64,000 nt of DNA from an uncultured Candidatus Saccharibacteria bacterium (GCA_964469335.1 CAYXYK010000003.1:3315-67314); one strand, 5' to 3'. Positions 786 through 54,584 are shown, numbered from the stretch's first letter. Translations and numbers: made by a program. Notes: generated from the sequence alone by a model not told the origin.

Positions 786-800
786 CCAGAACATCGAACA

Positions 801-1757
801 ATGGCAGAGCAAATGACTAATAAGCGTGCGGTAGTGCTCTTCATGCTGATTATCCCGTTTTTGACCGAGCTTCTGAGCGGGAACATTCCGATGCCTACGT
901 TCGCGAATCCTGTCGTATTCGGGTTCCTTCTTGTTGCGTATAGCATCCCTGCACTGCTTATTCGTGAACTATATATCCGTCGGCAAATGGGTCTCTATGG
1001 ACTTTTCGTACTTGGTCTCGCTTATGGGGTGTTCAATGAGGGAGTGGCAGCAAGGACCATACTGCAGACTGGAGAGATGCTCTCATTTCATGACTATTCG
1101 ACGTTGGGTTTCAATGTCCCTTGGGCTATTCTGATCGTACCGTGGCACGCGTTCTTCGCCATCGTCTATCCGATCATACTCGTCCATACTCTTTTCCCGG
1201 AACAATCGAAACAACGATGGCTTTCGCATAGATCAATGGTCGTTCTCGGTGTCGCCCCAGTTATACTCGGAAGTCTCTCGTATTTCAGCACTGATAGGTT
1301 CCCCCAGACACCCGTCGTTTATTTACTTGCCTGCTGGTTGCTGGTCATCTTCTTCGCGCTTCTTTCGCTCAAAGTGCCGCAAGGGCCAGTCCTCGATGTT
1401 GCAACAAGGACGGTTCCATCTCAGGCGAGATTCTTTGTAATCGGTATTCTGTTCGCAGTGGTCCAATTGCTTTCTTTCATCTGGGGTGAGGCCCGACTTC
1501 CGATCGTCGCACATCTCGTACTTGTGAGTATTCCGTTCATTGTGTTGGTCCGCTTACTGAATAAAATGACTTCTGTCGATGGGCGAACGCTGGGTTTAAT
1601 AGGGGTAGGGCATTATTCAGTCTGGGCACTCCTCATGTCTTTTATCGTTGGCGCGTCGGGCGGGGTCATCGTTCTTTTTGGTGCAGTGCTGGTGTGGCTA
1701 CTTCTCGCACTCTTGTGGTGGGTGCTTTCTCGTCAAAGAGTGAAGGAGTCTGCATGA
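801..1757 (+). CDS. polytopic integral membrane protein, function unknown
   Basis: 318 aa ORF with many hydrophobic helices (LFMLIIPFL, VVFGFLLVAY, VLVWLLLALLWWVL). No recognisable catalytic motif. Confidence 0.6.
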   Translation: MAEQMTNKRAVVLFMLIIPFLTELLSGNIPMPTFANPVVFGFLLVAYSIPALLIRELYIRRQMGLYGLFVLGLAYGVFNEGVAARTILQTGEMLSFHDYSTLGFNVPWAILIVPWHAFFAIVYPIILVHTLFPEQSKQRWLSHRSMVVLGVAPVILGSLSYFSTDRFPQTPVVYLLACWLLVIFFALLSLKVPQGPVLDVATRTVPSQARFFVIGILFAVVQLLSFIWGEARLPIVAHLVLVSIPFIVLVRLLNKMTSVDGRTLGLIGVGHYSVWALLMSFIVGASGGVIVLFGAVLVWLLLALLWWVLSRQRVKESA

Positions 1758-1808
1758 AAGGGAGTAGAGTTTGCCCCAAAATGGCCCTATAAAGCCCCAT
1801 ATTTTGGC

Positions 1809-1837
1809 TTGCCCCGATTGACGGGGCGGGGTATAGT
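1809..1837 (+). promoter_or_regulatory. putative sigma70-like promoter (TTGCCC-17-TATAGT) for the high-GC cassette gene
   Basis: TTGCCC at 1809-1814, 17-nt spacer, TATAGT at 1832-1837. GAGGAG Shine-Dalgarno sits about 8 nt before the ATG at 1890. Confidence 0.3.
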
Positions 1838-1889
1838 GTGGTCCGACCTTTTTGCTCTTTTTCCAACCCAACGAGGAGTCATACTCAAC

Positions 1890-3110
1890 ATGGAACCTTC
1901 TTATTTCACTCCCTCCGAGCTACGCTCGGCGAGCTTTCGTGCCTGGGTGGCGGAGCTCTATCAGCGCACACCCAAGTTTCTTGGCACCATGGCAGCCATC
2001 CCACACGAGGGGAGCTGGTACGTGCCTGCCTCAACCAACGATGACCATGTGTTCGTCCGTCGCAATGACGAAGCGATCACGTACGTCAATTCCTGCGGTC
2101 ATCTGCGGCTCAAGATCCGTCCGACCGGAAAGATCTTCGGCGGTGAGGCGTATCCGCGCCAAGGACGAATGGATGATCGGGAGCTCAAGGCGAAGGTGAT
2201 CGTTTGTCCGTGGCACCAACGTGCTCATCGTGTCGACAGCGGCGAATTCATCGCCAAGTCGGGCGAAGTGAAGGAGTGTCGTTCTCTGCGCAAAGTGGAG
2301 ACCGTCCGTCGCGGCGATCTCATCTTTGAAGCGGCTGACGGCAGTCTGCCGACGTTCGAAGGGCTCACCGCGAGCTCGACGTTCGCTGCACTCGGGATCA
2401 AGCCACTCGAACTTCCGAAGCATTTCGTGCTCCACAGGACCTGTGTCTACGACGAGAAGATGGACGCCGTCACTGGCGCCGCCAACTTCGACGAAGATGC
2501 GCATGTCAGGTGGACGCACAAGAACACGTTCGCTCATGTGTACGACATGCGTACGCTCACGATCGAAGTCTACGATCTCGCCTCCGCGGCGCAGTTCGTC
2601 GGCTGGTCGAAGGAAGGTGCCGCAAATCCTTCGGAGAAGTACAAGCGTTTGCGAGAACTCATCTTGAAACGTACGTGTGGCAAGGACCCCGCGTTCGGCG
2701 TGATCTGGTACCGCATGGGCCCTTTCACCACCGGTGAGCGTTTCTCGGTCGGTACTTCTCCGGACGACCACATCGCAGTGATCAGTTCCTTCGTTCCGAA
2801 GCCTGACGGCATCGGGTCGATGAACATCGTCGAGTACTACGTGCCGCCGCAGCTTGCGGAGGATGTGGAATTCATGGAGGCGTTCTTCGCCGCCTACGAC
2901 GAGACTGCATTCGAGGATCGCGAACTCTGCCTTGCTGCGGAAGAGGGCTACGACGCGATGATCCGCGCCGGACACGGCTCGGATCCGGTGATCGCATCGG
3001 GTGCGGATGAGGAGCGGTGTCTCCAGAACTACTACCAGTACTTGCGAATGCTCCAGCTGCGCTATCCGGTCAACTCCGTACGTCCGGTGCCAGAACTCGC
3101 AGTCGCCTGA
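1890..3110 (+). CDS. hypothetical protein (406 aa) in higher-GC cassette
   Basis: Long ORF. I prefer the internal ATG at 1890, which is preceded by aacGAGGAGtc, over the track start at 1809. No motif recognised. GC is about 58-60%, against about 49% in flanking glycosyltransferase genes. Confidence 0.55.
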   Translation: MEPSYFTPSELRSASFRAWVAELYQRTPKFLGTMAAIPHEGSWYVPASTNDDHVFVRRNDEAITYVNSCGHLRLKIRPTGKIFGGEAYPRQGRMDDRELKAKVIVCPWHQRAHRVDSGEFIAKSGEVKECRSLRKVETVRRGDLIFEAADGSLPTFEGLTASSTFAALGIKPLELPKHFVLHRTCVYDEKMDAVTGAANFDEDAHVRWTHKNTFAHVYDMRTLTIEVYDLASAAQFVGWSKEGAANPSEKYKRLRELILKRTCGKDPAFGVIWYRMGPFTTGERFSVGTSPDDHIAVISSFVPKPDGIGSMNIVEYYVPPQLAEDVEFMEAFFAAYDETAFEDRELCLAAEEGYDAMIRAGHGSDPVIASGADEERCLQNYYQYLRMLQLRYPVNSVRPVPELAVA

Positions 3111-3131
3111 CCTGGCTTGGGTCCATCATCA

Positions 3132-3163
3132 CACTCGAACGAGCGATCGTTCGAGTGTTTTTT
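3132..3163 (+). terminator. rho-independent terminator
   Basis: Perfect 11-bp stem CACTCGAACGA / TCGTTCGAGTG with loop GCGA, followed by TTTTTT. It lies 22 nt after the stop at 3110. Confidence 0.7.
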
Positions 3164-3221
3164 ATTCCCGCGTTCTTTGGTTGTTCTTTTAAACAACGGA
3201 TTGGTTTATAATGGTTGCAGT

Positions 3222-5273
3222 ATGTCCGATTTACCGAACAGTGGAGACAAGATAACGTATTTCGCCGAGACCGATTATCGCTCGCGGCGGATCAAGTTTG
3301 GTATCCGAGACGAGGACCGAGCGCGCCACATGTATGTCATCGGTAAGACAGGCATGGGAAAATCGACACTCCTCGAGAATCTCGCTATCCAAGACATTCA
3401 GAACGGGGAAGGAATCTGCTTCATCGATCCGCACGGTGGTACCGCAGAGACACTCCTCTCGTATGTCCCCGAGCATCGTATCAAGGATGTGATCTATTTC
3501 GCACCGTTCGATCAGGAGTTCCCGGTCGGTCTCAATGTGATGGAGGACCTCGGTCGTGACAAACGCCCCCTGGTCGTCTCCGGACTCATGGGTGCGTTCA
3601 AGAAAGTGTGGGTGGACGCGTGGAGTGCACGCATGGAATATATCTTGAACAATGCAATGCTTGCACTCATGGAGACTCCCGGCTCGACGCTGCTCGGAGT
3701 GAATCGTATGTTCGCCGACAAGGATTATCGTGCGATGATCGTCGCCAATGTCACTGATCCGTCGGTGCGCGCATTCTGGGTGGATGAGTATGCAAAGTAC
3801 TCCGATAAATTCGCGACCGAAGCAACTGCCGCCATTCAGAACAAGGTCGGTCAATTCGCTGCAAACCCGCTGATCCGAAACATGGTCGGGCAACCGAAGT
3901 CGACATTCGATATCCGCAAGGTCATGGATGAGAAGAAGATCTTTATCGTCAATCTCTCTAAGGGACGCATGGGAGAAGGGAACGCAAATCTCGTCGGCTC
4001 GATGCTCATCACCAAGATCTACCTTGCTGCCATGAGTCGCGCGGACGTCGGACCCGAAGCAGTGAAGTCGCTCCCACCATTCTACCTCTATGTCGATGAG
4101 TTCCAGTCATTCGCAAATGAATCGTTCGCGGATATCCTCTCCGAGGCACGTAAATACAAACTTTCACTTACGATCGCGCATCAGTATATCGAGCAGATGT
4201 CGGACGAAGTCCGGGCCGCGGTGTTCGGCAACGTTGGTACGATGATCGCATTCCGTGTCGGTTCATATGATGCCGAAGTCCTGGAGAAAGAATTCGCTCC
4301 GGTGTTCATCTCGGAAGATATCGTCAATCTCGGATTCGCCCAGGTATATCTCAAGCTGATGATCAAGGGGATCGGCTCTCCGCCTTTTTCCGCAACAACC
4401 ATCAATAGGCCGAAGATGCCCGCAGTGACCTACGCGAATGAAGTGATCGCTGCATCACGGGCACAGTTTGCGCTTCCTCGTGAGCAAGTTGAAAATGATA
4501 TCAAGAAATGGCACGAGCCCGTTCCTCCACAGCCGCGTGACCCGAATGCTCCGCAGGTGCCTGAGACGCGCAAGTATGCTCCTGGTACAAGGCCGCCCCC
4601 GAGACCCGCTTCGGCACAGTACGTTGAAATGGGGAGAGAGCCCGCACGAGAGAACAGAGTGGATGCCGAACGGCCGTCGCTCCCGCGTCCGCCGAGCGAT
4701 CGAATATTGCCGCCCGCCAGCGCAGCTTATGCACCAAGACCCCAACCAAGACAGCCAGAAGTACATCAGCCGTTCAAGATGGAGTTCGCAGAGCTGGTGA
4801 AAAAAGACGTTCCTTCGCAAGAGGTGTCGGCTGCCCCGCCTTCAGTACTTCCAGTACAAGCTGAGCGACGTCATGCATCTCCTGAAGCGCCAGTGCGCGT
4901 ACATGGAGAGCGCTCCCCCGCAAAAGAGGGAAGCGCCCCGCTTTCGATGCTCAAAACCAATCCTAAAAAAGACAAGGGACCTTCAGAACAAAACCTTTCA
5001 TCACTCCGTGACGCACTTTCGGCGGTACTAGTACAAAAAGAGGAAAAGAAAGCCCCTGAGGTTACTGTGCCTACCCAAGCGACTCCGGCAGCCACACAAG
5101 CACAACGAGTCGTGCAGGCACCACCCTCGGAGGTAAAAACAGCGACGCCCACACAGTCACCATCAATGGCGCAGCCTCCACCGTCCCGTGCACCCTTGCT
5201 TGATTCGCCGTTCACTCCTCCGCCACCCACTGAGATCCCGGAAGATGTGCTCAAGAAGGTATTGGCGGATTGA
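3222..5273 (+). CDS. VirD4/TraD/TrwB-like (DUF87/HerA-like) P-loop ATPase with long C-terminal Pro/Ala/Gln-rich disordered tail
   Basis: Walker A VIGKTGMGKST. Walker B-like FYLYVDEFQSF. TIAHQYIEQM resembles the coupling-protein Q-motif. The last roughly 260 aa are low-complexity (PVPPQPRDPNAPQVPETRKYAPGTRPPPRPAS...). I chose the start at the ATG 3222 (MSDLPNSG) rather than 3117; TATAAT at 3207-3212 lies just upstream. Confidence 0.55.
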   Translation: MSDLPNSGDKITYFAETDYRSRRIKFGIRDEDRARHMYVIGKTGMGKSTLLENLAIQDIQNGEGICFIDPHGGTAETLLSYVPEHRIKDVIYFAPFDQEFPVGLNVMEDLGRDKRPLVVSGLMGAFKKVWVDAWSARMEYILNNAMLALMETPGSTLLGVNRMFADKDYRAMIVANVTDPSVRAFWVDEYAKYSDKFATEATAAIQNKVGQFAANPLIRNMVGQPKSTFDIRKVMDEKKIFIVNLSKGRMGEGNANLVGSMLITKIYLAAMSRADVGPEAVKSLPPFYLYVDEFQSFANESFADILSEARKYKLSLTIAHQYIEQMSDEVRAAVFGNVGTMIAFRVGSYDAEVLEKEFAPVFISEDIVNLGFAQVYLKLMIKGIGSPPFSATTINRPKMPAVTYANEVIAASRAQFALPREQVENDIKKWHEPVPPQPRDPNAPQVPETRKYAPGTRPPPRPASAQYVEMGREPARENRVDAERPSLPRPPSDRILPPASAAYAPRPQPRQPEVHQPFKMEFAELVKKDVPSQEVSAAPPSVLPVQAERRHASPEAPVRVHGERSPAKEGSAPLSMLKTNPKKDKGPSEQNLSSLRDALSAVLVQKEEKKAPEVTVPTQATPAATQAQRVVQAPPSEVKTATPTQSPSMAQPPPSRAPLLDSPFTPPPPTEIPEDVLKKVLAD

Positions 5274-5310
5274 ACCAGCATTGTTTTTTTGTAGACAGAA
5301 TTATCCCGGG

Positions 5311-5338
5311 TTGACTGTCTTACGAAGAACGATAATAT
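5311..5338 (+). promoter_or_regulatory. putative sigma70-like promoter TTGACT-16-TAATAT
   Basis: TTGACT at 5311-5316 and TAATAT at 5333-5338. The start codon cluster at 5345/5357/5360 lies immediately downstream, with AAGGAA at 5348-5353. Confidence 0.35.
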
Positions 5339-5344
5339 GCCAGT

Positions 5345-6241
5345 ATGAAGGAACTCATGATGGCGTTTTCTATTACCGCGCTATTTTTTGCGCATTCTGC
5401 TTTTGCGGCAGTCGTCGTGAATGAGATCGCATGGATGGGAAGTGCCTCTTCAAGCGCGGATGAGTGGATCGAACTCCACAACGACAGTACGAACATGCAA
5501 GACCTGACCGGGTGGAAGATCACCGGCAAAGGTGGTGCAAATATCGCACTACTCTCCGGGAGTATTCCTCCGAACGGATATTTCCTGGTCGAGCGAAGTG
5601 ACGATGGCACCGTGCCGGAAGTCAAAGCAGATCTCGTTGTCTCATTCGGAAAGGGGATATCCAACGACGGCGAGACGCTGAAACTCGTCGACGGGGGAGG
5701 AAATACCGTCGACACTGTCATCGGGGGAAAGAACTGGAGCAAGATCGGCGGAGATAAAACATCGAAACAGACACCCCAACGTACCCCCTCCGGTTGGATC
5801 ACTGCCCCCGCCACACCGCGAGCTTCGAATAAGACACCTTCCGTCGCTAGTGAAATCGCCGCTCCGGTTACAAAAACAAGAGTCGCTCAACCTGTGAAAG
5901 TTGCAAACGCCGAGACGCTCAAAGAAGAGAATGTGTGGCCCGCAAAACCTGCTATCCCGCCGATAAGAGCAGTTGCGGAAGAGAAGAAGAGTGGAGGGAA
6001 TAACCAGATCATATCGACCAGTTCAGTCAGCGCGAATGTCCTCTGGCAGCGCGGGAAGAATGCAGATGCAGAGAAACGAGCATGGGCATGGATGATCGTC
6101 GCCGTACTCTTGGTCATCGCGGCATCGCTCATCATCATGCGGGCGAATGTCTATGAGCCGACTGAGGCTGACAAATACGCGATCATTGAGGACATCATCG
6201 AGGGGAAGGATGATGCCAATGACCGTCTCAGCGACTACTAG
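5345..6241 (+). CDS. secreted/membrane-anchored lamin-tail-domain (LTD) protein
   Basis: N-terminal signal peptide (AFSITALFFAHSAFA). The VVNEIAWMGS...DEWIELHN...GWKI motif block is typical of PF00932 LTD. There is a Thr/Pro/Ala-rich linker and a C-terminal TM helix (AWAWMIVAVLLVIAASLIIM). The true start may be ATG 5357/5360, which follows an AAGGAA Shine-Dalgarno. Confidence 0.65.
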   Translation: MKELMMAFSITALFFAHSAFAAVVVNEIAWMGSASSSADEWIELHNDSTNMQDLTGWKITGKGGANIALLSGSIPPNGYFLVERSDDGTVPEVKADLVVSFGKGISNDGETLKLVDGGGNTVDTVIGGKNWSKIGGDKTSKQTPQRTPSGWITAPATPRASNKTPSVASEIAAPVTKTRVAQPVKVANAETLKEENVWPAKPAIPPIRAVAEEKKSGGNNQIISTSSVSANVLWQRGKNADAEKRAWAWMIVAVLLVIAASLIIMRANVYEPTEADKYAIIEDIIEGKDDANDRLSDY

Positions 6242-6291
6242 TTTCGCTGAGCCACCTTTTTCTTTGTAGGCGGTTATACTATAGTGACGCT

Positions 6292-7743
6292 ATGCTAAAA
6301 GGGAAATTGATACTCGTGACCGGCGGCGCTGGCTTCGTTGGCACACGTTTGTGTGCGCGCCTACATGCAGACGGGAACCGTGTCATTTCCCTTGATAACT
6401 ATTTCGCGGGGAGCAGAGACAACCACGTCCCCGGTGTCGAGTATCGAGAGGGCCACACGAAGGATATCGCAAAGCATGTCACTGAGGTTCCAGACATCAT
6501 TTTTCATCTCGGGGAATATTCGCGAGTAGAACAAAGTCTCCTTGAGCCCGATATCGTTCATGACCTGAATACGCTTGGCACAAAAGGAGTGCTCGAGTTC
6601 TGGCAAACACACAAGATGAAACTCGTGTATGCCGGTTCGTCGACCAAATTCGGCGATGATGGGAAGAATCGAGAGGCATCTCCATATGCTCATACGAAGG
6701 CGGAGAACTCCGAGCTGGTGAAAAGGATCGGTGACGAGCAGGGACTTCCGTATGCGATAACCTATTTCTATAACGTGTACGGACCGGGAGAGCGCGCAGG
6801 TGTCTACGGCACGCTGATAGAGAATTTCAAACAGCAATACGTACGAGGTGCCCCACTGACCGTCACGCTTCCCGGTACTCAAGTGAGGAATTTCACTCAT
6901 GTCGACGACATCGTTGACGGGCTTGTGCTCGTGGGGGAGAAGGGAAGCGGGGATGAGTTCGGACTCGGTAATGATACGAATTATTCTATCCTTGATGTCG
7001 CGAAGATGTTCGGGACAGATGTACTGATGCTTCCGGAGCGTCGCGGCAACCGCATGCAGTCCGGCCTTGATACTTCGAAAAGTCGAGCGCTTGGGTGGAG
7101 TGCGAAGCGCTCGCTCAAAGAGTACCTCGAAGAATTCGTGAATTCTCACCCTCGTGGCAAAGAACTTGAGAAACGCATATTACTCTTCTCCACTACGTTC
7201 TATCCTGTTTCCGGCCCAGCAGAAGAAGCGCTCCTTGCGCTTGCTCGCGCGCTCCCGGGAGTGCACTTCGATGTCGTTACTACCGCTTTTTCCTCGGGTG
7301 CAAAGAGTGCGGCACACCCATTACCAAATATCGTTGTGCACCGACTTGGGATAGGGCATAAGACTGACAAATTCTTGCTTCCATTTTTGGGCTACAAAAA
7401 AGCGCGTGAATTACACGATACCCATTCATATTTGTTCGCGTGGGGGTTGATGGCGAGCTATGGGTCACTCGCCGCGATACTCCTTCGGCGTATGGTCGGG
7501 CTGCCGCTCCTCATCACGCTCGCAGATCAGAATTTTGAAGATGTTCCTGCGTTACGACGTAACTTGCTCGCGTTAATTCTCACCGGCGCTGATCAAGTAT
7601 ACGGAGGGGACAGTACTCAGGAAGAACATGCATCGACCCTCAGTCGCGGAAAACTGAAACGCCACTCGATCGGAGACGGTGATGCATTCGCGAATCAACT
7701 CCGTTTCGTCTACTCCGACTTCGCCAATAAGCAGCGCAATTAG
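6292..7743 (+). CDS. fusion protein: NAD-dependent sugar epimerase/dehydratase (SDR) plus C-terminal GT4-type glycosyltransferase N-domain only
   Basis: N-terminal LVTGGAGFVGTRL Rossmann motif, with YAHTK resembling the SDR YxxxK motif. The C-terminal roughly 170 aa (RILLFSTTFYPVSGPAEEALLAL...IVVHRLGIG...GLPLLITLADQNFEDVP) is paralogous to the N-terminal half of the GT4 at 8616. The GT C-terminal catalytic half is absent. Confidence 0.7.
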   Translation: MLKGKLILVTGGAGFVGTRLCARLHADGNRVISLDNYFAGSRDNHVPGVEYREGHTKDIAKHVTEVPDIIFHLGEYSRVEQSLLEPDIVHDLNTLGTKGVLEFWQTHKMKLVYAGSSTKFGDDGKNREASPYAHTKAENSELVKRIGDEQGLPYAITYFYNVYGPGERAGVYGTLIENFKQQYVRGAPLTVTLPGTQVRNFTHVDDIVDGLVLVGEKGSGDEFGLGNDTNYSILDVAKMFGTDVLMLPERRGNRMQSGLDTSKSRALGWSAKRSLKEYLEEFVNSHPRGKELEKRILLFSTTFYPVSGPAEEALLALARALPGVHFDVVTTAFSSGAKSAAHPLPNIVVHRLGIGHKTDKFLLPFLGYKKARELHDTHSYLFAWGLMASYGSLAAILLRRMVGLPLLITLADQNFEDVPALRRNLLALILTGADQVYGGDSTQEEHASTLSRGKLKRHSIGDGDAFANQLRFVYSDFANKQRN

Positions 7744-7756
7744 CCAGAATTTGGTA

Positions 7757-7786
7757 TTGGACAGAATCTAGTATTTGTGCTACAAT
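7757..7786 (+). promoter_or_regulatory. putative sigma70-like promoter TTGGAC-18-TACAAT
   Basis: TTGGAC at 7757-7762 and TACAAT at 7781-7786. AAGGG Shine-Dalgarno lies 6 nt before the ATG at 7831. Confidence 0.4.
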
Positions 7787-7830
7787 TTGGATTGGTAGTT
7801 TTTTCAACCTACGCCATGGAAGGGCGAAAA

Positions 7831-8529
7831 ATGAGTGCAACTGTTCCACTTTCCAGTACCACCCACAAGCCTGGGTGGATTCTCACAGTCAACGGCACCG
7901 AATTGCCTCCCGAAACCGAGTGGCAAGTGAACTCCAAGTTCGGTTCAGTGGAGACCGCTGTCGTTCTCGATAGCAATGGCAAACCGGTGTTCGACCGGCC
8001 TGCCTACCGCGAAGCCCCGAACGTCAACCTGGTCGTCTGGGGGCGCAACCGCGCCGGAGAGGTGAAGATCGCAGTGCTGCGCCAGCCGCGTCCGCATGCT
8101 GATGACCCGACGCAAGCCATGGCGCTCCGCAATCGGGCGATCATCTTCGGCCAAACCCCGATGGGGTTCGCCGAGAAGATCCTCGGTGAGAGTATCGAAG
8201 AGACGGCACGGCGCGAGACGGGCGAAGAGACCGGCGCGACGGTGGTGGTGGGGATCGAACGCCCGAGCTATCCGTGGCACAATCCCAACCCAACCTTCGT
8301 CGCCACCTGGAGCGATCTCGTGTTCGTGCAAGTAGACCTCGAACGTGTCGAAGCACTCAGGTCGACGCGCGACGAGCCGATCTTCTCGGCAGAGTTCATT
8401 TCTCCGGCGGAACTGATCCGGCGCGTGAAGCTCGGCGAAGACGACCACGGCGCCAAGTACCGCATGTGCACCTCGAACTCGGTCTGGTTCATCTTCTTCT
8501 GTGTCCACCCGGAACTGTTCGTTGCCTGA
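7831..8529 (+). CDS. NUDIX hydrolase (higher-GC cassette)
   Basis: Nudix box GESIEETARRETGEETG (Gx5Ex7REUxEExGU-like). I chose the start at ATG 7831 (MSATVPL), which has an AAGGG Shine-Dalgarno, rather than 7777. GC is clearly higher than neighbours. Confidence 0.65.
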   Translation: MSATVPLSSTTHKPGWILTVNGTELPPETEWQVNSKFGSVETAVVLDSNGKPVFDRPAYREAPNVNLVVWGRNRAGEVKIAVLRQPRPHADDPTQAMALRNRAIIFGQTPMGFAEKILGESIEETARRETGEETGATVVVGIERPSYPWHNPNPTFVATWSDLVFVQVDLERVEALRSTRDEPIFSAEFISPAELIRRVKLGEDDHGAKYRMCTSNSVWFIFFCVHPELFVA

Positions 8530-8539
8530 CGGCACGTAC

Positions 8540-8579
8540 GACCCGGAGCGTTACCTCAACGCTCCGGGTCATCTTTTTT
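8540..8579 (+). terminator. rho-independent terminator
   Basis: GACCCGGAGCGTT-acctc-AACGCTCCGGGTC is a perfect 13-bp stem, followed by ATCTTTTTTCTT. Confidence 0.7.
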
Positions 8580-8615
8580 CTTGCCCGAGCAAGGGGGGCT
8601 TGGTAGCATGAATCA

Positions 8616-9821
8616 ATGAAAAAAGTACTGATATTCTCCCTCGCATATTTTCCGAAACACGTCGGCGGGGCAGAAGTTGCGATCAAGGAGATCGTCGAGC
8701 GCATCCCAAAAGAGGAGATCGAATTCCATATGGTCACTTTACGATTCGATTCAACACTTCCTGCTATTGAAAACGTGGGGGGGATCCTTGTTCATCGCAT
8801 CGGGTTCACAAAGCCGAACCCTGGCATGGGAGATCTGCGCAAATTCCCGCTCCATTTGAATAAATTCCTCTATCAATTCTATGCACCGCTCGTCGCATGG
8901 AAGCTCGATCGGAAATATCACTATAATGGTGCATGGGCGATGATGGCACATTCATGTGGAGTGCCAACCACCATTTTCAACATCCTTTCAGGAGTGCCGT
9001 ACCTTCTTACACTCCAAGAAGGTGACCCGATCCCATACATCATGAAGAAGGCACGACCTGTGTATCCGCTGTTTATTCGCGCATTCAGAAAAGCGAAAGT
9101 GATCCAAGCAATCTCGACCTATCTTGCCACATGGGCGAAAGACATGGGTTTCAAGGGCCCGATCGAAGTCGTACCGAATGCAGTCAACACCGAACATTTC
9201 TCTCAAGAATTCCCCCAAAACGAGCTCGATGCCTTGAAAAAGGAACTCGGGAAGAAGGAGGGAGAGAAATATATCATCACCACGTCCCGTCTTGTCACCA
9301 AGAATGCGGTCGACATCGTCATCCGTGCGATGAAACTGCTTCCCCCGAACGTCACATTCCTTATCCTTGGCATCGGTCCGGACGAGGAGATGCTCAAGCA
9401 GCTTGCGAAGGATCAGGGTGTGGAGTCGCGCGTACGCTTTCTCGGGCAGAAAGGTCATGCTGAACTTCCTAAGTATCTGAAGATCTCAGATGTGTTCACA
9501 AGACCGTCACGCTCGGAAGGGATGGGGAATTCATTCGTCGAGGCGATGGCAGCGAAGATTCCTGTGGTCGCCACTGCGGAAGGTGGAATCACGGATTTCC
9601 TGTTCGATCCCGAGATCAATCCTGAAAAAAAACCGACCGGCCTCTTTGCGAAGACTGCTGATTTCGAGGATACCGCAATGAGACTCAAGCGTTTTCTCGA
9701 TGACACGGCACTCCGTGATCGCTGTATCGAGAATGCTTACGCCCTGGTCATGGCTCAGTACGACTGGGATCTGATAGCCAAGAATATGCGTGAAAAGGTG
9801 TTCGCAAAACTCTTCGCATAA
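8616..9821 (+). CDS. GT4 family glycosyltransferase
   Basis: GT-B fold with C-terminal EGMGNSFVEAMAAKIPVVATAEGG (the E-x7-E motif of retaining GT4). Confidence 0.8.
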   Translation: MKKVLIFSLAYFPKHVGGAEVAIKEIVERIPKEEIEFHMVTLRFDSTLPAIENVGGILVHRIGFTKPNPGMGDLRKFPLHLNKFLYQFYAPLVAWKLDRKYHYNGAWAMMAHSCGVPTTIFNILSGVPYLLTLQEGDPIPYIMKKARPVYPLFIRAFRKAKVIQAISTYLATWAKDMGFKGPIEVVPNAVNTEHFSQEFPQNELDALKKELGKKEGEKYIITTSRLVTKNAVDIVIRAMKLLPPNVTFLILGIGPDEEMLKQLAKDQGVESRVRFLGQKGHAELPKYLKISDVFTRPSRSEGMGNSFVEAMAAKIPVVATAEGGITDFLFDPEINPEKKPTGLFAKTADFEDTAMRLKRFLDDTALRDRCIENAYALVMAQYDWDLIAKNMREKVFAKLFA

Positions 9822-9854
9822 CACCTTCTTCTGGTGTAGGATGTTGATATTCCT

Positions 9855-10961
9855 ATGAGATTACTCATTGCCACACCACTCTATCCGCCCGACGACGGTG
9901 GGCCGGCGACATATGCGAAACTTCTCGAAACAGCACTCCCTGCAAAAGGGATAACCGCGAGCGTTGTCTCGTTCAGTAACTATCGGCATTTACAAAAAGG
10001 GATTAGTCACCTCTCTTACACTTGGGCTCTTTTTTGCGCAGCAAAAAAAGCGGATATCATCCTGGCTCTCGACCCAGTCTCGGTCGGATTGCCGGCGCTT
10101 ATTGTTTCATATCTCAGGAGAAAGCCGCTCATCCTCAAAATGGTAGGAGACTACGCATGGGAGCAGGGGACACAGCGCTTCGGAGTGAAGGAGAATCTAG
10201 ATGAATTCGTGAAGCGAAATGACTATCCGAGCGCTGTTCGCACTCTCCGAGCGGTCGAAAAACAAGTTGCTGAACGTGCTGAGCAAGTTATCGTTCCGAG
10301 CGAATATCTGAAAGGTATCGTGATGGCATGGGGGATACCGGGCGAGAAGATCTCGGTAGTCTACAATGCATTCAACTCAGACCTACCTACCGCTTCAAAG
10401 GAAGTGCTACGCAAGAAATTCAATTACGGTCATCCAGTCATCATCTCGGTCGGGCGGATGGTGCCGTGGAAAGGCTTCAAGGGTTTGATGGATGCGGCGG
10501 CACCGCTTGTAGAGGAATTCCCTAGACTTACGCTTGAGATTGTCGGGAGCGGTGACCGTGGCGAGTATGAATCATATGCCAAAGAAAAAGGATATGAGTT
10601 CGTACATTTCTCTCCCAATCAATCACATGATGAGATCCTTTCGCGCATCAAGGCGGCAGACTGCTTCGCGCTCAATACCGGATATGAAGGGCTCTCGCAT
10701 CTCCTCCTCGAGGCGATGGCGGTCGAGACACCGATCGTGACGACTCATGTCGGAGGCAACACCGAGCTTTTGACCGGAGAGCGCGGAGTGCTGCTTCCAT
10801 ACAATGATATCGCTGCGATCACAAAAGCATTGCGCGATACACTTACTGACAAAAAGAAGGCACAAGAGATGGCATCGCGAGCGGGGGAGTATGTACAAGG
10901 ATTCACCGAGCCGCATATGCTAGAATCCCTAGTGTCACTACTCAATACCGTAAAGATATGA
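9855..10961 (+). CDS. GT4 family glycosyltransferase
   Basis: MRLLIATPLYPPDDGGPATYA N-terminus and EGLSHLLLEAMAVETPIVTTHVGGNTE E-x7-E motif. Confidence 0.8.
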   Translation: MRLLIATPLYPPDDGGPATYAKLLETALPAKGITASVVSFSNYRHLQKGISHLSYTWALFCAAKKADIILALDPVSVGLPALIVSYLRRKPLILKMVGDYAWEQGTQRFGVKENLDEFVKRNDYPSAVRTLRAVEKQVAERAEQVIVPSEYLKGIVMAWGIPGEKISVVYNAFNSDLPTASKEVLRKKFNYGHPVIISVGRMVPWKGFKGLMDAAAPLVEEFPRLTLEIVGSGDRGEYESYAKEKGYEFVHFSPNQSHDEILSRIKAADCFALNTGYEGLSHLLLEAMAVETPIVTTHVGGNTELLTGERGVLLPYNDIAAITKALRDTLTDKKKAQEMASRAGEYVQGFTEPHMLESLVSLLNTVKI

Positions 10962-12160
10962 AACTCCTGATGTACTCAACCGACCGGGCACTCTTTGATG
11001 AGGAGTCACCTGTGCGCGCCAGACTTCTTGAACAGGCGAATCTCGCCACCACACTCGATGTGGTCGTATTCACTCCGCGAGGTGAAAAATTCAAACAGTT
11101 CAAGCTTGGTCGCAAACTCACCATACATCCGACCACATCGTCGTCGAAGTTCTCGTATTTGTCTGATGCATATAAGCTTGGCAAAAGCATTCTTGAGAAC
11201 GCAGAGGATAAGAGTAAGTGGCTCATCACCACTCAGGATCCATTCCTGACCGGAGCTATTGGCTTTTTTCTCTCACGAAAATTCTCCATACCACTTCATC
11301 TCCAGCTTCATACCGACCCATGGAGCCGTGAGTGGCGAGCGGAACGTCTGCGCAATAAATTCGAGCTACTCATCGCCTCATTCCTGCTCACCCGTGCAGA
11401 CGGTGTACGAGTGGTATCACAGCGAGTGAGGGCTTCTGTGCTTTCCCTCGGAGTGACACCTGACAAGATCACTCGTGTGCCGATCTGGGTGGATACGAAG
11501 ATGTTCAGGGAGGGTATCCCGAATTTCGATCTACATCGTACCTATCCTGAATTCTCGAACATCATTCTCTCCATCGGAAGATTGCAACCAGAGAAGAATT
11601 ATACGAAACTCATCAAGGTGTTCGCGCACATCTCACGTGTTCATAGTGATGCGATGCTCATCATCGTCGGTTCGGGTCCCGAACGTGAGCGATTGGTGAA
11701 TCTTTCCCGAACACTCGGTATCGACAAGGCGGTCGTGATCCTACCTTGGGCACGTGACGTCGTTTCGTATTATAAGACTTCCGACATCTATGTGCAGCCG
11801 TCACTCTATGAAGGTTGGTGCCTCACAGCTATCGAAGCGATGTCGGCTGGGACTCCCGTTGTCATGACCGACGTTGGCTGTGCAGGCGAAGTGGTCAGGA
11901 ACGAAGAAACAGGGCTGGTGGTCCCCACTCAAAGTGAGGAGGCACTCACACTTGCGCTGAACAGACTAATCGAGGATAGTACCCTGCGGGCAACATTGTC
12001 CCTCGCTGGGAAGGAAGAGAGTAAACGGCTTGCCACTAAAGAAGAGACGCTGGCGTTATATAAACAAAGCTGGGAAAAAGCATTCGGCAAGAAGGAAACG
12101 AAACATCCAACGAAAAAGAAAACAACTGAACGTGGAACAAAAACAAAAAAGAAATCCTAG
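10958..12160 (+). CDS. GT4 family glycosyltransferase with Lys-rich C-terminal tail
   Basis: EGWCLTAIEAMSAGTPVVMTDVGCAGEVV motif. Its 4-nt start overlaps the previous stop (ATGA). The C-terminus is KKETKHPTKKKTTERGTKTKKKS. Confidence 0.8.
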   Translation: MKLLMYSTDRALFDEESPVRARLLEQANLATTLDVVVFTPRGEKFKQFKLGRKLTIHPTTSSSKFSYLSDAYKLGKSILENAEDKSKWLITTQDPFLTGAIGFFLSRKFSIPLHLQLHTDPWSREWRAERLRNKFELLIASFLLTRADGVRVVSQRVRASVLSLGVTPDKITRVPIWVDTKMFREGIPNFDLHRTYPEFSNIILSIGRLQPEKNYTKLIKVFAHISRVHSDAMLIIVGSGPERERLVNLSRTLGIDKAVVILPWARDVVSYYKTSDIYVQPSLYEGWCLTAIEAMSAGTPVVMTDVGCAGEVVRNEETGLVVPTQSEEALTLALNRLIEDSTLRATLSLAGKEESKRLATKEETLALYKQSWEKAFGKKETKHPTKKKTTERGTKTKKKS

Positions 12161-12167
12161 AATTGTC

Positions 12168-13127
12168 GTGATCGGAGGGGGTACCGGAACTTTTACCGTG
12201 CTTTCCGGACTCAAACATTACCCGGTAGACCTTACCGCTGTGGTAACGATGGCGGACGACGGGGGCTCGACCGGAGTACTACGTGATGAGTTCGGTGTAC
12301 TTCCGCCAGGGGATGTGCGACAGTGTTTGGTGGCACTTGCAGATGAGGATCTCCTCATGCGTAAACTCTTCAATCATCGCTATGACAGAGGTTCACTCAA
12401 GGGGCATAGCTTCGGCAATATCTTCATCTCGACACTCGAACAGGTTGCGGGGAGTATCGATAAAGCGATCGATGTCGCCGCGAATATCCTGAATGTCCGC
12501 GGGCGTGTCGTTCCCGTCACGCTCGACCAGATCGCGCTGCACGCAGAACTCAATAACGGCAAGATACTCAATGGTGAGAGTGCGCTCATGGAGTATCAGC
12601 TGGTTTCCAAGTATGGGATCAAGAAGATATATCTCGACCCAGCAGGAAAGGCGAATCCGAAAGCACTCAAGGCAGTCGCAGAAGCGGATCTCATTGTTGT
12701 CGGGCCAGGAAAGCTCTATACATCGATACTGCCGAACTTCCTTGTTAAAGGCGTTCCGCGCGCTTTTGCACGTTCGAAAGCCAAGAAAGTGTTCATTGCG
12801 AACCTGATGAGTCAGCAGGGACATACCGATAATTTCTCCGTTTGTGATTATGTCGAAGTGCTTGAAGCATATATAGGAAAGCATGTATTCGACACCATTC
12901 TTTTCAATACCAAGAAACCCCCTCAAGCATTGGTACGCCGCTATGCTGATGAGGGTGAGCCGGTCGTCTGCACTGAGGAATGTAAGAAGAGTGGTTATGA
13001 ACTTGTCGGGAAAGACCTGCTTGCAGAGGGGATAGCGAACACGCCAAAGAAAGACCTGCTCCGCCGCACGCTCATTCGGCACGATTCCGACAAGCTTGCG
13101 AAGGCGATAATCAAGCTTCTGGGATAG
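12168..13127 (+). CDS. yvcK: YvcK/CofD-like (UPF0052, gluconeogenesis-factor / UDP-GlcNAc-binding) family protein
   Basis: IVVIGGGTGTFTVLSGLKHYPVDLTAVVTMADDGGSTGVLRDEFGVLPPGDVRQCLVAL matches the YvcK family signature. The start is uncertain. The track ATG at 12030 gives a Lys/Arg-rich extension that overlaps 130 nt of the upstream gene in an A-rich stretch. I prefer the GTG at 12168, just after the upstream stop. Confidence 0.7.
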   Translation: MIGGGTGTFTVLSGLKHYPVDLTAVVTMADDGGSTGVLRDEFGVLPPGDVRQCLVALADEDLLMRKLFNHRYDRGSLKGHSFGNIFISTLEQVAGSIDKAIDVAANILNVRGRVVPVTLDQIALHAELNNGKILNGESALMEYQLVSKYGIKKIYLDPAGKANPKALKAVAEADLIVVGPGKLYTSILPNFLVKGVPRAFARSKAKKVFIANLMSQQGHTDNFSVCDYVEVLEAYIGKHVFDTILFNTKKPPQALVRRYADEGEPVVCTEECKKSGYELVGKDLLAEGIANTPKKDLLRRTLIRHDSDKLAKAIIKLLG

Positions 13128-13156
13128 TTGACAATATCTTAATTATCTGCTACTAT
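13128..13156 (+). promoter_or_regulatory. putative sigma70-like promoter TTGACA-17-TACTAT heading high-GC cassette 3
   Basis: A consensus -35 TTGACA at 13128-13133 and TACTAT at 13151-13156. It is followed by a leader of about 150 nt before the small ORF at 13317. Confidence 0.4.
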
Positions 13157-13316
13157 ATTTTCATATCGTTCTTTGATTCATACCCCTTTCCGACTTTACT
13201 TTGTCGGTCAGGCTCAACTCTGTGATGAGAAGAACTCTCAAATACGCTCGCAAGAGACGTAATCCGTCCACGAAGTGGGCATGTGCTAGTGTGCTTTCAC
13301 CAAAGGAGAAATATCC

Positions 13317-13496
13317 ATGGAATGGGTTCTCGTGATCTTTCTGCTGGTCCAAGGCCAATCGGCTGCGATCGGCAAGATCGAAGGTTTCCCAACCGAACAG
13401 GCATGTAACGATGCTTGGAACAAGATTCTCAAGGATCGGGCACAGGCAGGCCAGGCTGGGTCTTGGCTAAACCTGAGCTGTGTGCGAAAGAAATAG
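13317..13496 (+). CDS. small (59 aa) putative secreted/membrane peptide with two Cys, not in the ORF track
   Basis: ATG at 13317 is preceded by AAAGGAGAA (GGAG at 13305-8, spacing 8). Translation is MEWVLVIFLLVQGQSAAIGKIEGFPTEQACNDAWNKILKDRAQAGQAGSWLNLSCVRKK*, with stop TAG at 13494-6. It has a hydrophobic N-terminus resembling a signal peptide. Its 59 codons are just below the 60-aa track cutoff. Confidence 0.5.
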   Translation: MEWVLVIFLLVQGQSAAIGKIEGFPTEQACNDAWNKILKDRAQAGQAGSWLNLSCVRKK

Positions 13497-13594
13497 CATA
13501 CCAACAAAAGACGTTTTCAAGGATTTGTGCAGTATGCACGAATAGTCGTATCCATACCATTGGATGCATCACCCCACTATCAAGGAGAAGAGGA

Positions 13595-14500
13595 ATGCAA
13601 CTCAAGAAACACGAAGACCGTCTCGCGGTCGTCATTCGCACGTTCCAAGCGGGCGCACGCGTCGCTGGCAGCAACAAGGAGTGGAATCCCGTGACGTTCG
13701 AAAAGAGCGTGCGCGACCCTCTCTCAGCGTTGATCGACTCGGCACCACCTTCGCTTGCTCGCGTCATCATCGTTTCCTGTGGTGACAACAACTCGCCGTT
13801 GCGGGAGATGGTCGACGCCGAAGGGAAGACCCCGACGATGCGCGCAGTGCAGCAGGCGTTCCCGGAGGAGATCGCGCGTGGTTTCATCAAGGCCGTGCTC
13901 GATCCGAACTGGGGCAAGAATGCCGGAAGTGCATCGGCGCTCAATGTCGGCTGGCGTGCCGCTTCTGACGACGGCGACATCAACCTCGTCTTGTCGTGGA
14001 ACCCGGACTTCCACTTGCCCGGGCACACGCTCGCCGCCGGACTCGAGCACATGCGCCGTTACTTCCTGCCGATCTGCGGCTTCTACCGAGAAGGCTGGTA
14101 CCAACGATTCCAGTGGAACATGTTCCAGAACACCGCCACCATCTACAAGATGGAGTTCCTCAAGGAGCATGGCGGCTTCTCTCCGCGTTGCGATGGTAAT
14201 GCTGACGAGACGGTCGACGTAGGCGGTACCCCGGTGCGCCTCGCCGGCATGGATGACTTCTACGCTTATCTCACGGCAATGAAGCACATCGGCGCTGCGG
14301 TCCCTTGGGGGATGTACGGCGTGATGAAGGCATCCGATTGGGAGATCGAATTCGCCGATGACCCGCTGAAGCAGAAGATGTTCGACGAGAAGGTTCGTCG
14401 TCAACTCGTCGTGATGCAAGCCTGGGCGAAGGAGATCTTCCCGGATGTCCCGTTCTGGACCTTGATCGCCGAGATCTTCCAGATGCTGCGGCAAGCCTGA
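13595..14500 (+). CDS. hypothetical protein, possibly GT-A-fold (GT2-like) glycosyltransferase
   Basis: I chose the start at ATG 13595 (MQLKKHEDRLAVVIRTF), which follows AAGGAGAAGAGG, rather than 13415. The weak GT-A-like pattern is LAVVIRTF...ALNVGWRAASDDGDINLVLSWNPD. It lies in the high-GC cassette. Confidence 0.5.
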   Translation: MQLKKHEDRLAVVIRTFQAGARVAGSNKEWNPVTFEKSVRDPLSALIDSAPPSLARVIIVSCGDNNSPLREMVDAEGKTPTMRAVQQAFPEEIARGFIKAVLDPNWGKNAGSASALNVGWRAASDDGDINLVLSWNPDFHLPGHTLAAGLEHMRRYFLPICGFYREGWYQRFQWNMFQNTATIYKMEFLKEHGGFSPRCDGNADETVDVGGTPVRLAGMDDFYAYLTAMKHIGAAVPWGMYGVMKASDWEIEFADDPLKQKMFDEKVRRQLVVMQAWAKEIFPDVPFWTLIAEIFQMLRQA

Positions 14501-14562
14501 GTTCCAACCATACCCGAGTGGAGCGATTCCGCTTGGGACTTCAACTGAAGGAGAGCAGATAT

Positions 14563-15045
14563 ATGATCTCACACGACAAGCAGGAAGAACTCTACCGCTT
14601 CGTGGCAAGCCGCTTCGGCATGAACGACAAGCCCAGGCTGCATCTCACCGGACTCTTCACCACCGGTGGGTGCAATGGGCAAGCGGTGATCGAAGCCGGC
14701 TACAACATCGGGTATGTTGCAAGGCAGCTCACCGATGGGGAAATGCCGGACGGCGACGCACTCGAGGCGGTGTACGAGAAGCTCAGTGCACCGTTCGCGA
14801 ACTACCAGCCGGTCGGGCACGACTCGTACTGGGAGGAAGATGCCTACCATGCGAATGCCCTCCACATCCTCCGGGTGCACAAGGAGCTCATCTTCCGCAT
14901 CGCACGCGAGCTCTGGGACCTTTTCCCGGAGATCCACCAGCGGTTCGGCGAGCATGCTCCCGGAATGGAACCGGCAACCTTCTTCCGTGAGCACATGGGT
15001 GGCTTCGCTTTCCAGTGGGTCGAGCTCGATCGGGGTAAGAAATAG
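14563..15045 (+). CDS. hypothetical protein (160 aa)
   Basis: ATG 14563 follows AAGGAGAG. No motif recognised. It is the last gene of the high-GC cassette. Confidence 0.55.
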   Translation: MISHDKQEELYRFVASRFGMNDKPRLHLTGLFTTGGCNGQAVIEAGYNIGYVARQLTDGEMPDGDALEAVYEKLSAPFANYQPVGHDSYWEEDAYHANALHILRVHKELIFRIARELWDLFPEIHQRFGEHAPGMEPATFFREHMGGFAFQWVELDRGKK

Positions 15046-15081
15046 CACGCACCCAAGCTCGATGCGCGCTTCGTTCTTTTG

Positions 15082-15114
15082 AAACCTCATGAGGAAACTC
15101 ATGGGGTTTTTGTT
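15082..15114 (+). terminator. rho-independent terminator
   Basis: AAACCTCATGAG-gaaa-CTCATGGGGTTT forms an 11-bp stem with one G-U pair, followed by TTTTTGTT. Confidence 0.55.
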
Positions 15115-15125
15115 ATACTGTTTCT

Positions 15126-16070
15126 ATGGACGATACAGAGCGCGATGCACTGAAACTACTCGAACGTAACCGCGTTGGGGCGCTTTTACGCGTATACGCA
15201 TATACGCCCGAAGCAGTTGATTTCCAGATAAATTCTGCGATGCAGGCACTGCGCAGACTGTTGGTACTTCGCACAGGAGGAAGGCAGACATTCAATCGTA
15301 TCGACTTTCTTGTATCGAGCGACCCTGACTTTGAAGACACCGACTGCGGACTCATGACAGAACGGCTGCGTGATGCAGTTCGGTCGGAATTCCCGGATGC
15401 ACCGGTGAATGTGTCCGAAATAAAGAAAGGAGACATCTACTGCATGCTGCTCAATTATGGTGTTGCCAACCAACTCGAGGATCGTATCGCATACTCTATG
15501 ATCATTTCCCATGCCGCATCGAGCTACGCGACAGCGGAGACGGTCAACGGTCTCCTCGCAGCGATGTACAACAAGGCACGGGTCGCTGGAGTTGCTATCA
15601 ATGAGCTTGCGCCGCTTGTCTCACGCGGGCTATTGATGAACACATTCATCATGTGGCACAACAAAAGCCTGATGACGATCGGCGGATTCGATCTCATTGC
15701 CGCTAAGCCTGCACTTGTCCATGCCCACACCAGAGAGAAAGTGAAGGGATGGAGTGACAAGAAAGCCGAGCGGCACGGAGACGGCAATGTCGAATACCAC
15801 GTCGCTGGCTGCGAAGAGATCATTCCGCTCACTCGATTTGTGCGATTTTTCGGTAAGTGTCTCCAAGTTGTTGAGCCAGTCGGGACAGAGATGGAATGGG
15901 TCGAACCCGATATGGAAAAGGATAGCAGAGCATACCATCGACATCTTGCAAAACTTGCGACCAAAGTGGAGCGCCAAAAACGTATGGCTGCTACCCAAGG
16001 GGTCGATCTCGAGTTCATACAGAGGGGGCTGATGGATGCCAATATAGACAAGGAATCCGGAAGTATATAA
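15126..16070 (+). CDS. hypothetical protein (314 aa)
   Basis: Long ORF with no motif recognised. The ATG lies 6 nt after TGTTATACT, an extended -10-like element, so the mRNA may be leaderless. Confidence 0.55.
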   Translation: MDDTERDALKLLERNRVGALLRVYAYTPEAVDFQINSAMQALRRLLVLRTGGRQTFNRIDFLVSSDPDFEDTDCGLMTERLRDAVRSEFPDAPVNVSEIKKGDIYCMLLNYGVANQLEDRIAYSMIISHAASSYATAETVNGLLAAMYNKARVAGVAINELAPLVSRGLLMNTFIMWHNKSLMTIGGFDLIAAKPALVHAHTREKVKGWSDKKAERHGDGNVEYHVAGCEEIIPLTRFVRFFGKCLQVVEPVGTEMEWVEPDMEKDSRAYHRHLAKLATKVERQKRMAATQGVDLEFIQRGLMDANIDKESGSI

Positions 16071-54583: not shown

Positions 54584-54584
54584 C

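Follow-up and report, generated by a model that had tools for sequence, protein, structure and literature searches.

Variable glycan genes of bacteria are classically lower in GC content than the genome that carries them. Colanic-acid Gmm/WcaH is a NUDIX pyrophosphatase, and gmm is encoded inside a polysaccharide locus. Cassettes of integrons lack a promoter, carry attC at their end and depend on the IntI integrase. Morons of HK97/HK022-type phages carry their own promoter and terminator, deviate in GC content and are inserted between conserved genes (Cumby, Davidson and Maxwell 2012, PMC3594210). A 64,000-nt stretch of DNA from an uncultured Candidatus Saccharibacteria bacterium (GCA_964469335.1 CAYXYK010000003.1:3315-67314; hereafter the window) was analysed for three GC-rich segments, 1809-3163 (cassette 1), 7757-8579 (cassette 2) and 13128-15114 (cassette 3). 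The phage moron is the closest concept, and the cassettes can be called moron-like in architecture. We give about an even chance to the reading that they are autonomous, moron-like units kept GC-rich over time, most likely by selection tied to expression.

The window is a 64 kb cell-envelope glycan locus of a bacterium belonging to Patescibacteria (the candidate phyla radiation, or CPR). About 50 of its proteins were scanned against Pfam, and all of these belong to sugar-nucleotide or glycan metabolism (GT4 and GT2 glycosyltransferases, epimerases, UDP-sugar dehydrogenases, aminotransferases, methyltransferases, NeuB and a flippase-like protein), apart from a DUF4015 hydrolase, a TrwB/HerA-like ATPase and a lamin-tail-domain (LTD) protein at the left end. 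No integrase-family, mobility or phage-typical family was found among the scanned proteins, and no tRNA gene or Rfam family across the window. Near-identical contigs of the same species are present in several metagenomes. Related loci (numbered with the prefix L) and homologues carry overwhelmingly Patescibacteria/CPR labels (Paceibacteria, Lloydbacteria, Moranbacteria, Nealsonbacteria, Azambacteria and others).

GC content is 0.509 over the window, with a standard deviation of 0.038 over 600-nt windows, and almost all 600-nt windows more than 1.5 standard deviations above the mean lie inside the three segments. These have values of 0.585, 0.591 and 0.561, the last rising to 0.593 in 13600-15114. 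The original prediction had set them against neighbouring genes at 48-50% GC. The excess was confirmed for the segments, but 13128-13590 (promoter, leader and a 59-aa open reading frame (ORF), about 460 nt) has a GC content of only 0.48-0.53, and the neighbours were measured at 0.50-0.55. When the 57 genes of the window were ranked by GC content at third codon positions (GC3), the first four places went to the Rieske-type gene of cassette 1, the NUDIX gene of cassette 2, and P301 and P160 of cassette 3 (0.72-0.78; median 0.583, median absolute deviation 0.046). From per-position values, about two thirds of the GC excess of these genes sits at third positions. The high-GC stretch 4201-5200 is the Pro/Ala-rich tail of the ATPase and has an ordinary GC3 of 0.584.

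Promoter-like sites and predicted terminators frame each of the three segments (Table 1), as had been proposed. In a first terminator scan the top two plus-strand matches were 3131-3158 and 8540-8570. A stricter, energy-based scan yielded five plus-strand terminators at or below -12 kcal/mol in 64 kb, and the three strongest are the three cassette ends. Terminators comparable to these were not found for the backbone genes, in agreement with the earlier description of the neighbours as mostly terminator-free. Over the 500 nt that precede each cassette terminator, GC content is raised by 0.084 to 0.12; downstream of it the deviation is about 0. Total counts of promoters and terminators in 1-18 kb were no higher than expected from shuffling; it is the placement of these signals, not their number, that is non-random. 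Judged by sequence patterns and folding energy, the cassette ORFs have their own promoter and a factor-independent terminator around them, the arrangement by which morons are recognised. Strong terminators also close the Rieske gene, P301 plus its partner and other small GC-rich genes of related loci. The cassette 1 hairpin is found again in L009, about 32 nt past the Rieske stop, despite a protein identity of 58%, and carries a compensatory change (CACTCGAACGAGCGATCGTTCGAGTG in the window versus CACCCGAACGAGCGATCGTTCGGGTG in L009). On these patterns the segments are compositionally distinct, predicted self-contained transcription units, with an architecture that recurs around orthologues elsewhere.

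Table 1. Positions of the cassette features in the window, and of leader copies in related loci (last rows).
Feature	Position	Strand	GC	GC3	Basis and remarks
Cassette 1 promoter-like site, TTGCCC-17-TATAGT	1809-1837	+			9/12 matches; 52 nt 5' of ATG; pattern match only
Rieske-type non-haem-iron oxygenase alpha-like gene, 406 aa	1890-3110	+	0.592	0.720	Pfam, motifs
Cassette 1 intrinsic terminator	3131-3166	+			12-bp stem plus T-tract; -18 to -19 kcal/mol
Cassette 2 promoter, TGGACA-17-TACAAT, TG-extended -10	7758-7786	+			10/12 matches, TG present
NUDIX gene (probable NDP-sugar pyrophosphatase), 232 aa	7831-8529	+	0.612	0.755	Pfam PF00293, 33.8 bits (cut-off 21.1)
Cassette 2 intrinsic terminator	8540-8579	+			13-bp stem with 9 GC pairs, T-tract; -26.4 kcal/mol, strongest in the window
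Cassette 3 promoter, TTGACA-17-TACTAT, TG-extended	13128-13156	+			10/12 matches
Structured 5' leader RNA (predicted), 89 nt	13160-13248	+			Four helices, 19 pairs; directly 3' of promoter
59-aa ORF, hydrophobic N-terminus	13317-13496	+	0.528	0.60	AAAGGAG upstream; not GC-rich; putative gene
P301, GT-A-fold glycosyltransferase-like gene, 301 aa	13595-14500	+	0.600	0.781	AlphaFold2 model and Foldseek
P160, 160-aa protein	14563-15045	+	0.600	0.783	Preceded by GAAGGAG; predicted to be co-transcribed with P301
Cassette 3 intrinsic terminator, CCTCATGAG-GAAA-CTCATGGGG plus TTTTTGTT	15085-15114	+			Sequence read; -14.9 to -16.4 kcal/mol
Leader copy, L010	9839-9927				
Leader copies, L036	3659-3747, 4315-4403				
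Leader copy, L011	227-315				
Leader copy, L044	3533-3619				
Leader copy, L046	578-666				

The NUDIX gene was compared over 22 loci obtained from a scan of species-representative genomes. Its homologues number more than 171, and all named ones as well as 17 of the 22 genome loci carry a Patescibacteria/CPR label (the remaining labels were unchecked). GC content of the gene is above that of its flanks in 20 of the 22 loci, by up to 0.20 (0.605 versus 0.403 in L027), and its GC3 is above the median flank GC3 in almost all. A Lloydbacteria locus with 40% GC has the order DUF4015, ATPase, LTD, epimerase fusion, ..., NUDIX, GT4, GT4, GT4, and its NUDIX gene (62% amino-acid identity) has a GC content of 0.574 and a GC3 of 0.70 between flanks at about 0.40 (0.395) and 0.38, respectively. 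The order epimerase fusion, NUDIX, GT4 is kept in L013, L015, L016, L018, L019, L020, L021, L023 and L035. The expression signals recur as well. A strong hairpin (at or below -12 kcal/mol) with a T-run lies within about 55 nt of the NUDIX stop in about 10 of 17 other loci, a promoter-like site with at least 10/12 matches lies upstream in six other loci (two with 12/12, two with 11/12), the extended -10 TGnTAnAAT is found 5' of orthologues in most lineages, and a canonical Shine-Dalgarno sequence is present at all other NUDIX loci checked. Loci without a usable terminator (L014, L020, L035) are among those with the smallest GC excess. No near-identical NUDIX copies were found in distant hosts and the GC3 of the gene is not clustered by NUDIX similarity, so the excess would arise or persist in situ.

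P301 is GC-rich in 6/6 lineages at 62-66% amino-acid identity, and the hosts in which the NUDIX or P301 excess was seen span 28-64% GC. Well before proteins have diverged by 35-45%, their synonymous sites have been replaced many times over and are saturated, so that a GC3 excess shared at such distances cannot be left over from a single ancient transfer. On sequence comparison the NUDIX and P301 excess must have been regenerated or maintained in each lineage as a long-held property of the gene family. DNA in which such an excess has been maintained for so long would not be un-ameliorated foreign DNA, in the sense of the amelioration argument reportedly due to Lawrence and Ochman.

The cassette 3 promoter is followed by a leader that occurs once in the window. 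A covariance model of it (R1) located the leader 5' of every P301 homologue with upstream sequence (L011, L044/45, L046/47) and also 5' of an extra 148-aa cassette in a sister strain, always between the promoter and the first ORF. Both promoter and leader are kept in L010, in L036 (as two copies), in L044 and in L046, and the leader core is almost invariant in L010, where P301 identity is only 66%. Over eight distinct sequences, fitted to the covariance model as an alignment of few members, pairing was kept in 97.4% of cells, against 40-57% in slid controls, and six pairs change on both sides. Helices 3-4 covary, and helices 1-2 and the junction sequences are nearly invariant. Rfam 15 gave no match to the leader at the gathering score or at E <= 1. 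An exact-match metagenome scan with a 25-nt leader core returned nothing, though known JGI contigs carry the sequence, so the scanned collection evidently does not include those samples. The 89-nt leader is a candidate new cis-regulatory RNA, to which we infer a regulatory role.

Codon usage in the cassette genes was found to be distinct, as had been proposed, and to amplify the window's own preferences (TTC 0.95, ATC 0.94, CTC 0.61, AAG 0.89; ATA, AGA and TTA zero). CAA/CAG usage is the same as in the window, GAA/GAG nearly the same, and CGT is kept. This pattern argues against a generic high-GC donor and is compatible with stronger synonymous selection in strongly, independently expressed units. 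Distinct codon usage with possibly high expression remains the best reading of the composition; we infer both the expression level and the selective cause of the GC-richness from the sequences.

According to this reading, the backbone would be made up of densely packed operons, most of them free of terminators, and three autonomous units would interrupt it where one operon gives way to the next. Each unit would have a promoter of the sigma70 type and a canonical Shine-Dalgarno sequence, would contain one or more GC-rich ORFs and would end in a strong intrinsic terminator. The units would encode accessory or tailoring enzymes of the same glycan pathway, namely a Rieske oxygenase, a nucleoside-diphosphate (NDP)-sugar pyrophosphatase, and a GT-A glycosyltransferase with a variable small partner, and the P301 unit would sit under the structured 5' leader RNA. 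The GC-richness would come from selection that acts on synonymous sites or on properties of the mRNA and is tied to strong, independent expression, and recombination would turn over the slot content. Judged by folds and motifs, the cassettes are most likely tied functionally to the locus and are not unrelated passengers.

The proteins had been called hypothetical, but folds and motifs could be recognised. For the 406-aa protein of cassette 1, Pfam Ring_hydroxyl_A scored 24.8 bits (gathering cut-off 24.9) and PF00355 was not listed. The Rieske [2Fe-2S] ligands C69-x-H71...C106-x2-H109 are invariant over six homologues, as are H205 and H210 of the iron-site motif NFxEDAHVxxTH. A search of 5.8 billion proteins brought up no more than six homologues, and a PDB sequence search gave no match, only spurious beta-propeller repeats. 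The protein is most likely a very divergent Rieske non-haem-iron oxygenase. Its gene is syntenic in L002 and L009 (55-58% identity). Since DUF4015 directly adjoins the ATPase in L013 and L021, cassette 1 is, on gene order, a lineage-specific insertion.

In the NUDIX protein, residues E120, R128, E129, E132, E133 and G135 of the Nudix box are invariant in 34 sequences. Its AlphaFold2 model (predicted local distance difference test score, pLDDT, 79.9) was matched by Foldseek to two-domain ADP-ribose pyrophosphatases and to the GDP-mannose hydrolase YffH with TM-scores of 0.55-0.66. Given the intact Nudix box and the fit to these folds, the protein is most likely of the two-domain NDP-sugar pyrophosphatase type, similar to ADP-ribose pyrophosphatase and NudK. 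A full-text literature search on Patescibacteria/CPR and Nudix returned no paper on this NUDIX family or its expression. The NAD-dependent epimerase/dehydratase upstream (6292-7743) has a C-terminal extension of about 240 aa with no Pfam match, and this fusion is kept beside NUDIX in many Patescibacteria (L015, L021, L023, L035). In another Patescibacteria clade the NUDIX gene stands outside a glycan locus and heads a GC-rich block of 3-4 kb (L025 1319-4948, L027 1064-3964, L029 9860-13524) made up of NUDIX, a small membrane protein, a 492-aa protein and a second small membrane protein. The N-terminus of the 492-aa protein, which was not scanned against Pfam, resembles POT-family peptide transporters. 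GC3 of the block is 0.55-0.90 against host values of 0.32-0.46, and a nearby gene for a 956-aa secreted protein is GC-rich too.

P301 had no match in Pfam or NCBIfam, and a PDB sequence search was uninformative. Its AlphaFold2 model (pLDDT 80.5, predicted TM-score 0.83) gave 148 PDB matches in Foldseek at E <= 1e-3. GT-A/GT2 glycosyltransferases make up most of the best 50, and the matches include RmlT, K4CP, hyaluronan synthase, GtrB and TarS/TarP (E 1e-7 to 1e-5). With regard to a DxD metal-binding motif, invariant acidic positions are D64, NPD 136-138 and D220-D221. P301, for which only six homologues were found, is most likely a GT-A-fold (GT2-like) glycosyltransferase. P160 has five relatives among 1.84 billion representatives, three of them of similar length, at 30-46% identity, and is conserved in sister strains; by this distribution the family is real but rare. 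The 59-aa ORF has two amino-acid changes in the sister strain L036 and is absent in L010.

The content of the cassette slots turns over between lineages. The place after P301 is taken by P160 in the window and by unrelated genes of 156 aa in L010, 243 aa in L011 and 260 aa in L046, and it is empty in L044/L045; the genes in this place are mutually non-homologous across four lineages. The sister strains L036 and L039 have an extra GC-rich 148-aa gene (GC 0.579, GC3 0.77) with its own terminator that the window does not have, a difference in presence among strains that are about 94% identical. In L036 (3627-4471, compared with 13128-13316 of the window) this gene is bracketed by two promoter-leader copies of about 100 bp, of which the window has one. 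Its presence and absence is consistent with recombination between the promoter-leader repeats. The 148-aa protein had no PADLOC match and no similarity to P160. An insertion between genes that are adjacent in relatives was seen for cassette 1, the 148-aa cassette of L036 and the post-P301 slot, but not for NUDIX. A further variable slot lies between LTD and the epimerase (6241-6292 in the window, without a gene), where L002 (11125-11778) and L009 (4614-5243) have another GC-rich gene, about 210 aa long, that has a promoter-like site and a terminator to itself.

Positions 1-13105 were compared with L005 (94.6% nucleotide identity). Divergence at third positions is a mosaic, with 0.02-0.06 from DUF4015 through the epimerase fusion, 0.15 in LTD, 0.27 in GT4c and 0.48 in CofD, and this mosaic indicates frequent homologous recombination within the locus. 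For NUDIX the value is 0.215, against 0.064 and 0.075 in its two neighbours, the divergent tract running over about 7951-8850. The tracts that are more divergent than NUDIX (GT4c, CofD) are not GC-rich.

Several observations weigh against GC-richness maintained by expression-linked selection. The NUDIX GC3 excess is about 0 in L014, L032 and L035 versus +0.25 to +0.4 in L013, L019, L025, L027 and L029, and this unevenness looks episodic, not like constant selective pressure. The Rieske excess is small in L002 and L009. Pooled across lineages, the codon shift is broadly GC-ward and not limited to particular codons, and the codon-class analysis over lineages could not tell selection apart from a general force towards GC. 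The L10 and L7/L12 genes of the very AT-rich L043 show little GC3 excess, and the window has no ribosomal or EF-Tu genes by which optimal codons could be defined. Pairwise identities of NUDIX showed no correlation with those of GT4a, the epimerase fusion and the ATPase (r = 0.04, 0.17 and -0.41, within a narrow identity range and with uncertain GT4 orthology), which leaves room for separate histories.

This last result would also be expected if the cassettes were horizontally acquired modules from a GC-richer pool (other Patescibacteria or a mobile element) that kept the donor composition, the conserved ones being repeatedly replaced through their flanks, an explanation we consider rather unlikely. 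Horizontal gene transfer among Patescibacteria has been reported to be common (PMC12455944). The original prediction had raised horizontal acquisition and proposed a check of orthologous positions in related genomes, and the outcome was divided. In L013 and L021 no cassette 1 separates DUF4015 from the ATPase, and slots turn over, with the 148-aa cassette polymorphic among close strains and non-homologous genes after P301. The Rieske, P301 and P160 families are very small (6, 6 and 5 relatives), an allelic replacement tract spans NUDIX, and a gene with its own promoter and terminator is portable. NUDIX, on the other hand, is at the same position in most relatives and GC-rich nearly everywhere, P301 is GC-rich in every lineage, and orthologues with saturated synonymous sites share the excess. 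Neither integrase, transposase or phage gene (among the scanned proteins) nor tRNA gene was found nearby; IMG/VR yielded no relative of the Rieske, NUDIX or P301 proteins; and no named homologue or locus indicated a high-GC donor outside the CPR. The lack of near-identical copies in distant hosts, GC3 values independent of the NUDIX tree, a codon pattern that exaggerates the native one, and other recombination tracts of ordinary GC likewise speak against imported composition. Foreign DNA is the weaker reading.

GC-biased gene conversion, which has been proposed for bacteria (PMC4450053), would make the cassettes local recombination hot spots in which biased heteroduplex repair lifts GC3 without selection for expression. 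The coincidence of the NUDIX body with the high-divergence tract between close strains, the slot turnover, which implies frequent recombination at cassette borders, and the GC-ward codon shift in all degenerate classes fit this explanation. We strongly doubt it, since GC is ordinary where the locus has recombined most (GT4c and CofD, third-position divergence 0.27-0.48), the Rieske gene is GC-rich at low divergence and mosaicism (0.032), and the sharp, gene-exact borders of the excess fit transcription units better than recombination tracts. That there is no special feature, only amino-acid composition or chance with coincidental promoter and terminator matches, we find scarcely credible. In its favour, the four genes have somewhat elevated GC1 and GC2, the conserved protein sequence accounts for part of the NUDIX excess in very AT-rich hosts (L018, where NUDIX GC3 is only 0.196), and overall signal counts equal the shuffle expectation. 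This would leave the share of the excess at third positions, the four top GC3 ranks, the placement of the three strongest plus-strand terminators and the recurrence of architecture and excess in independent lineages to coincidence. An extension of the reading we favour, in which phylum-wide autonomous GC-enriched units ("chromosomal morons") would be held GC-rich against the host mutational bias and swapped in fixed slots through a portable promoter and leader, without a recombinase and possibly under riboswitch-like control, is clearly improbable at present.

Long minus-strand ORFs in the segments had been put down to GC bias, and this was borne out, as the length of the antisense ORF tracks GC3 in NUDIX orthologues and the ORF fragments at low GC. 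Antisense genes at 2031-2975, 7945-8535 and 13724-14608 were rejected on this ground.

Immediately past the cassette 3 terminator (15114-15126), a -10-like TATACT ends 6 nt 5' of the ATG of P314 (15126), and for this reason the transcript of P314 might be leaderless. Conserved beside P301 (54-75% identity), P314 has no Pfam match and is not GC-rich. Profile comparison showed no relationship between the two proteins, and a P314-based metagenome scan gave only 3 loci. Farther to the right, a low-GC block at about 51000-56000 (GC 0.40-0.44, GC3 0.40-0.48) lies shortly upstream of NeuB (57444-58511); its products are a methyltransferase, an aminoglycoside-3-N-acetyltransferase-like protein, a MaoC dehydratase and a short-chain dehydrogenase/reductase. 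It has the composition usual for variable sugar-tailoring genes, opposite to that of the cassettes. A perfect direct repeat of 300 nt (56012-56311 and 56660-56959, 648 nt apart) lies within a single ORF, 55884-57299 (471 aa), which has a weak Asp/Glu racemase match and an unusually high GC2 (0.51). Either a domain duplicated within the protein or an error of assembly may explain the repeat.

Island finders that go by composition would class these cassettes as foreign, yet for two of the gene families the comparisons show an excess that has been maintained, which advises caution for estimates of horizontal gene transfer in Patescibacteria. One conserved gene that lies 10-20 GC points above its genome in hosts of 28-64% GC is a natural test case for selection versus biased gene conversion versus transfer at synonymous sites in bacteria. 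The units point to unstudied tailoring of surface glycans in ultra-small symbiotic bacteria. The parts most worth following are the family-wide, persistent GC excess and the leader RNA.

Known systems were compared as follows. A phage origin was rejected, as NUDIX, P301 and Rieske have no viral relatives in IMG/VR and PHROGs gave generic NUDIX matches only; a defence system was rejected, as no cassette protein had a PADLOC match. By the criteria used for genomic islands, composition is deviant and the distribution of Rieske, P301 and P160 is narrow, that of NUDIX broad and syntenic, and tRNA and mobility genes were not seen within the scope given above. The cassettes resemble integron cassettes in being single-gene modules in slots, with presence/absence polymorphism bounded by repeats. 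They differ in that each has a promoter and a terminator and the repeat is a promoter-leader duplicate. No integrase-family match was seen among the scanned proteins, and no search was aimed at attC; with units under their own promoters and a leader present once in the window, an integron-like array was rejected.

Like the tailoring genes of O-antigen and capsule loci and flexible glycosylation islands, the cassettes are accessory glycan-modifying genes between backbone genes, with a content that varies by strain and lineage and is exchanged by homologous recombination. Unlike these, they are higher in GC, each appears to be a monocistronic unit under signals of its own, and one has been conserved in much of the phylum. 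The NUDIX protein shares the Nudix box and an N-terminal beta domain with E. coli NudF (1g0s) and YffH/NudK (3o52). At 14-19% identity to solved enzymes it forms a separate family, with its own N-terminal region and labelled members that are almost all Patescibacteria. As with gmm, its gene lies inside a polysaccharide locus. From phage morons the cassettes differ in several respects. They lie in a glycan locus of a cellular chromosome, with no phage genes among the scanned proteins of the 64 kb and no IMG/VR relatives; the NUDIX and P301 families are old, fixed residents whose GC excess is maintained and not of recent import; their payloads appear to be enzymes of the pathway around them; and NUDIX is not an insertion between genes adjacent elsewhere. 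They are moron-like in that they are predicted independent units with their own promoter and terminator, a GC content unlike that of the adjacent genes, and an accessory payload.

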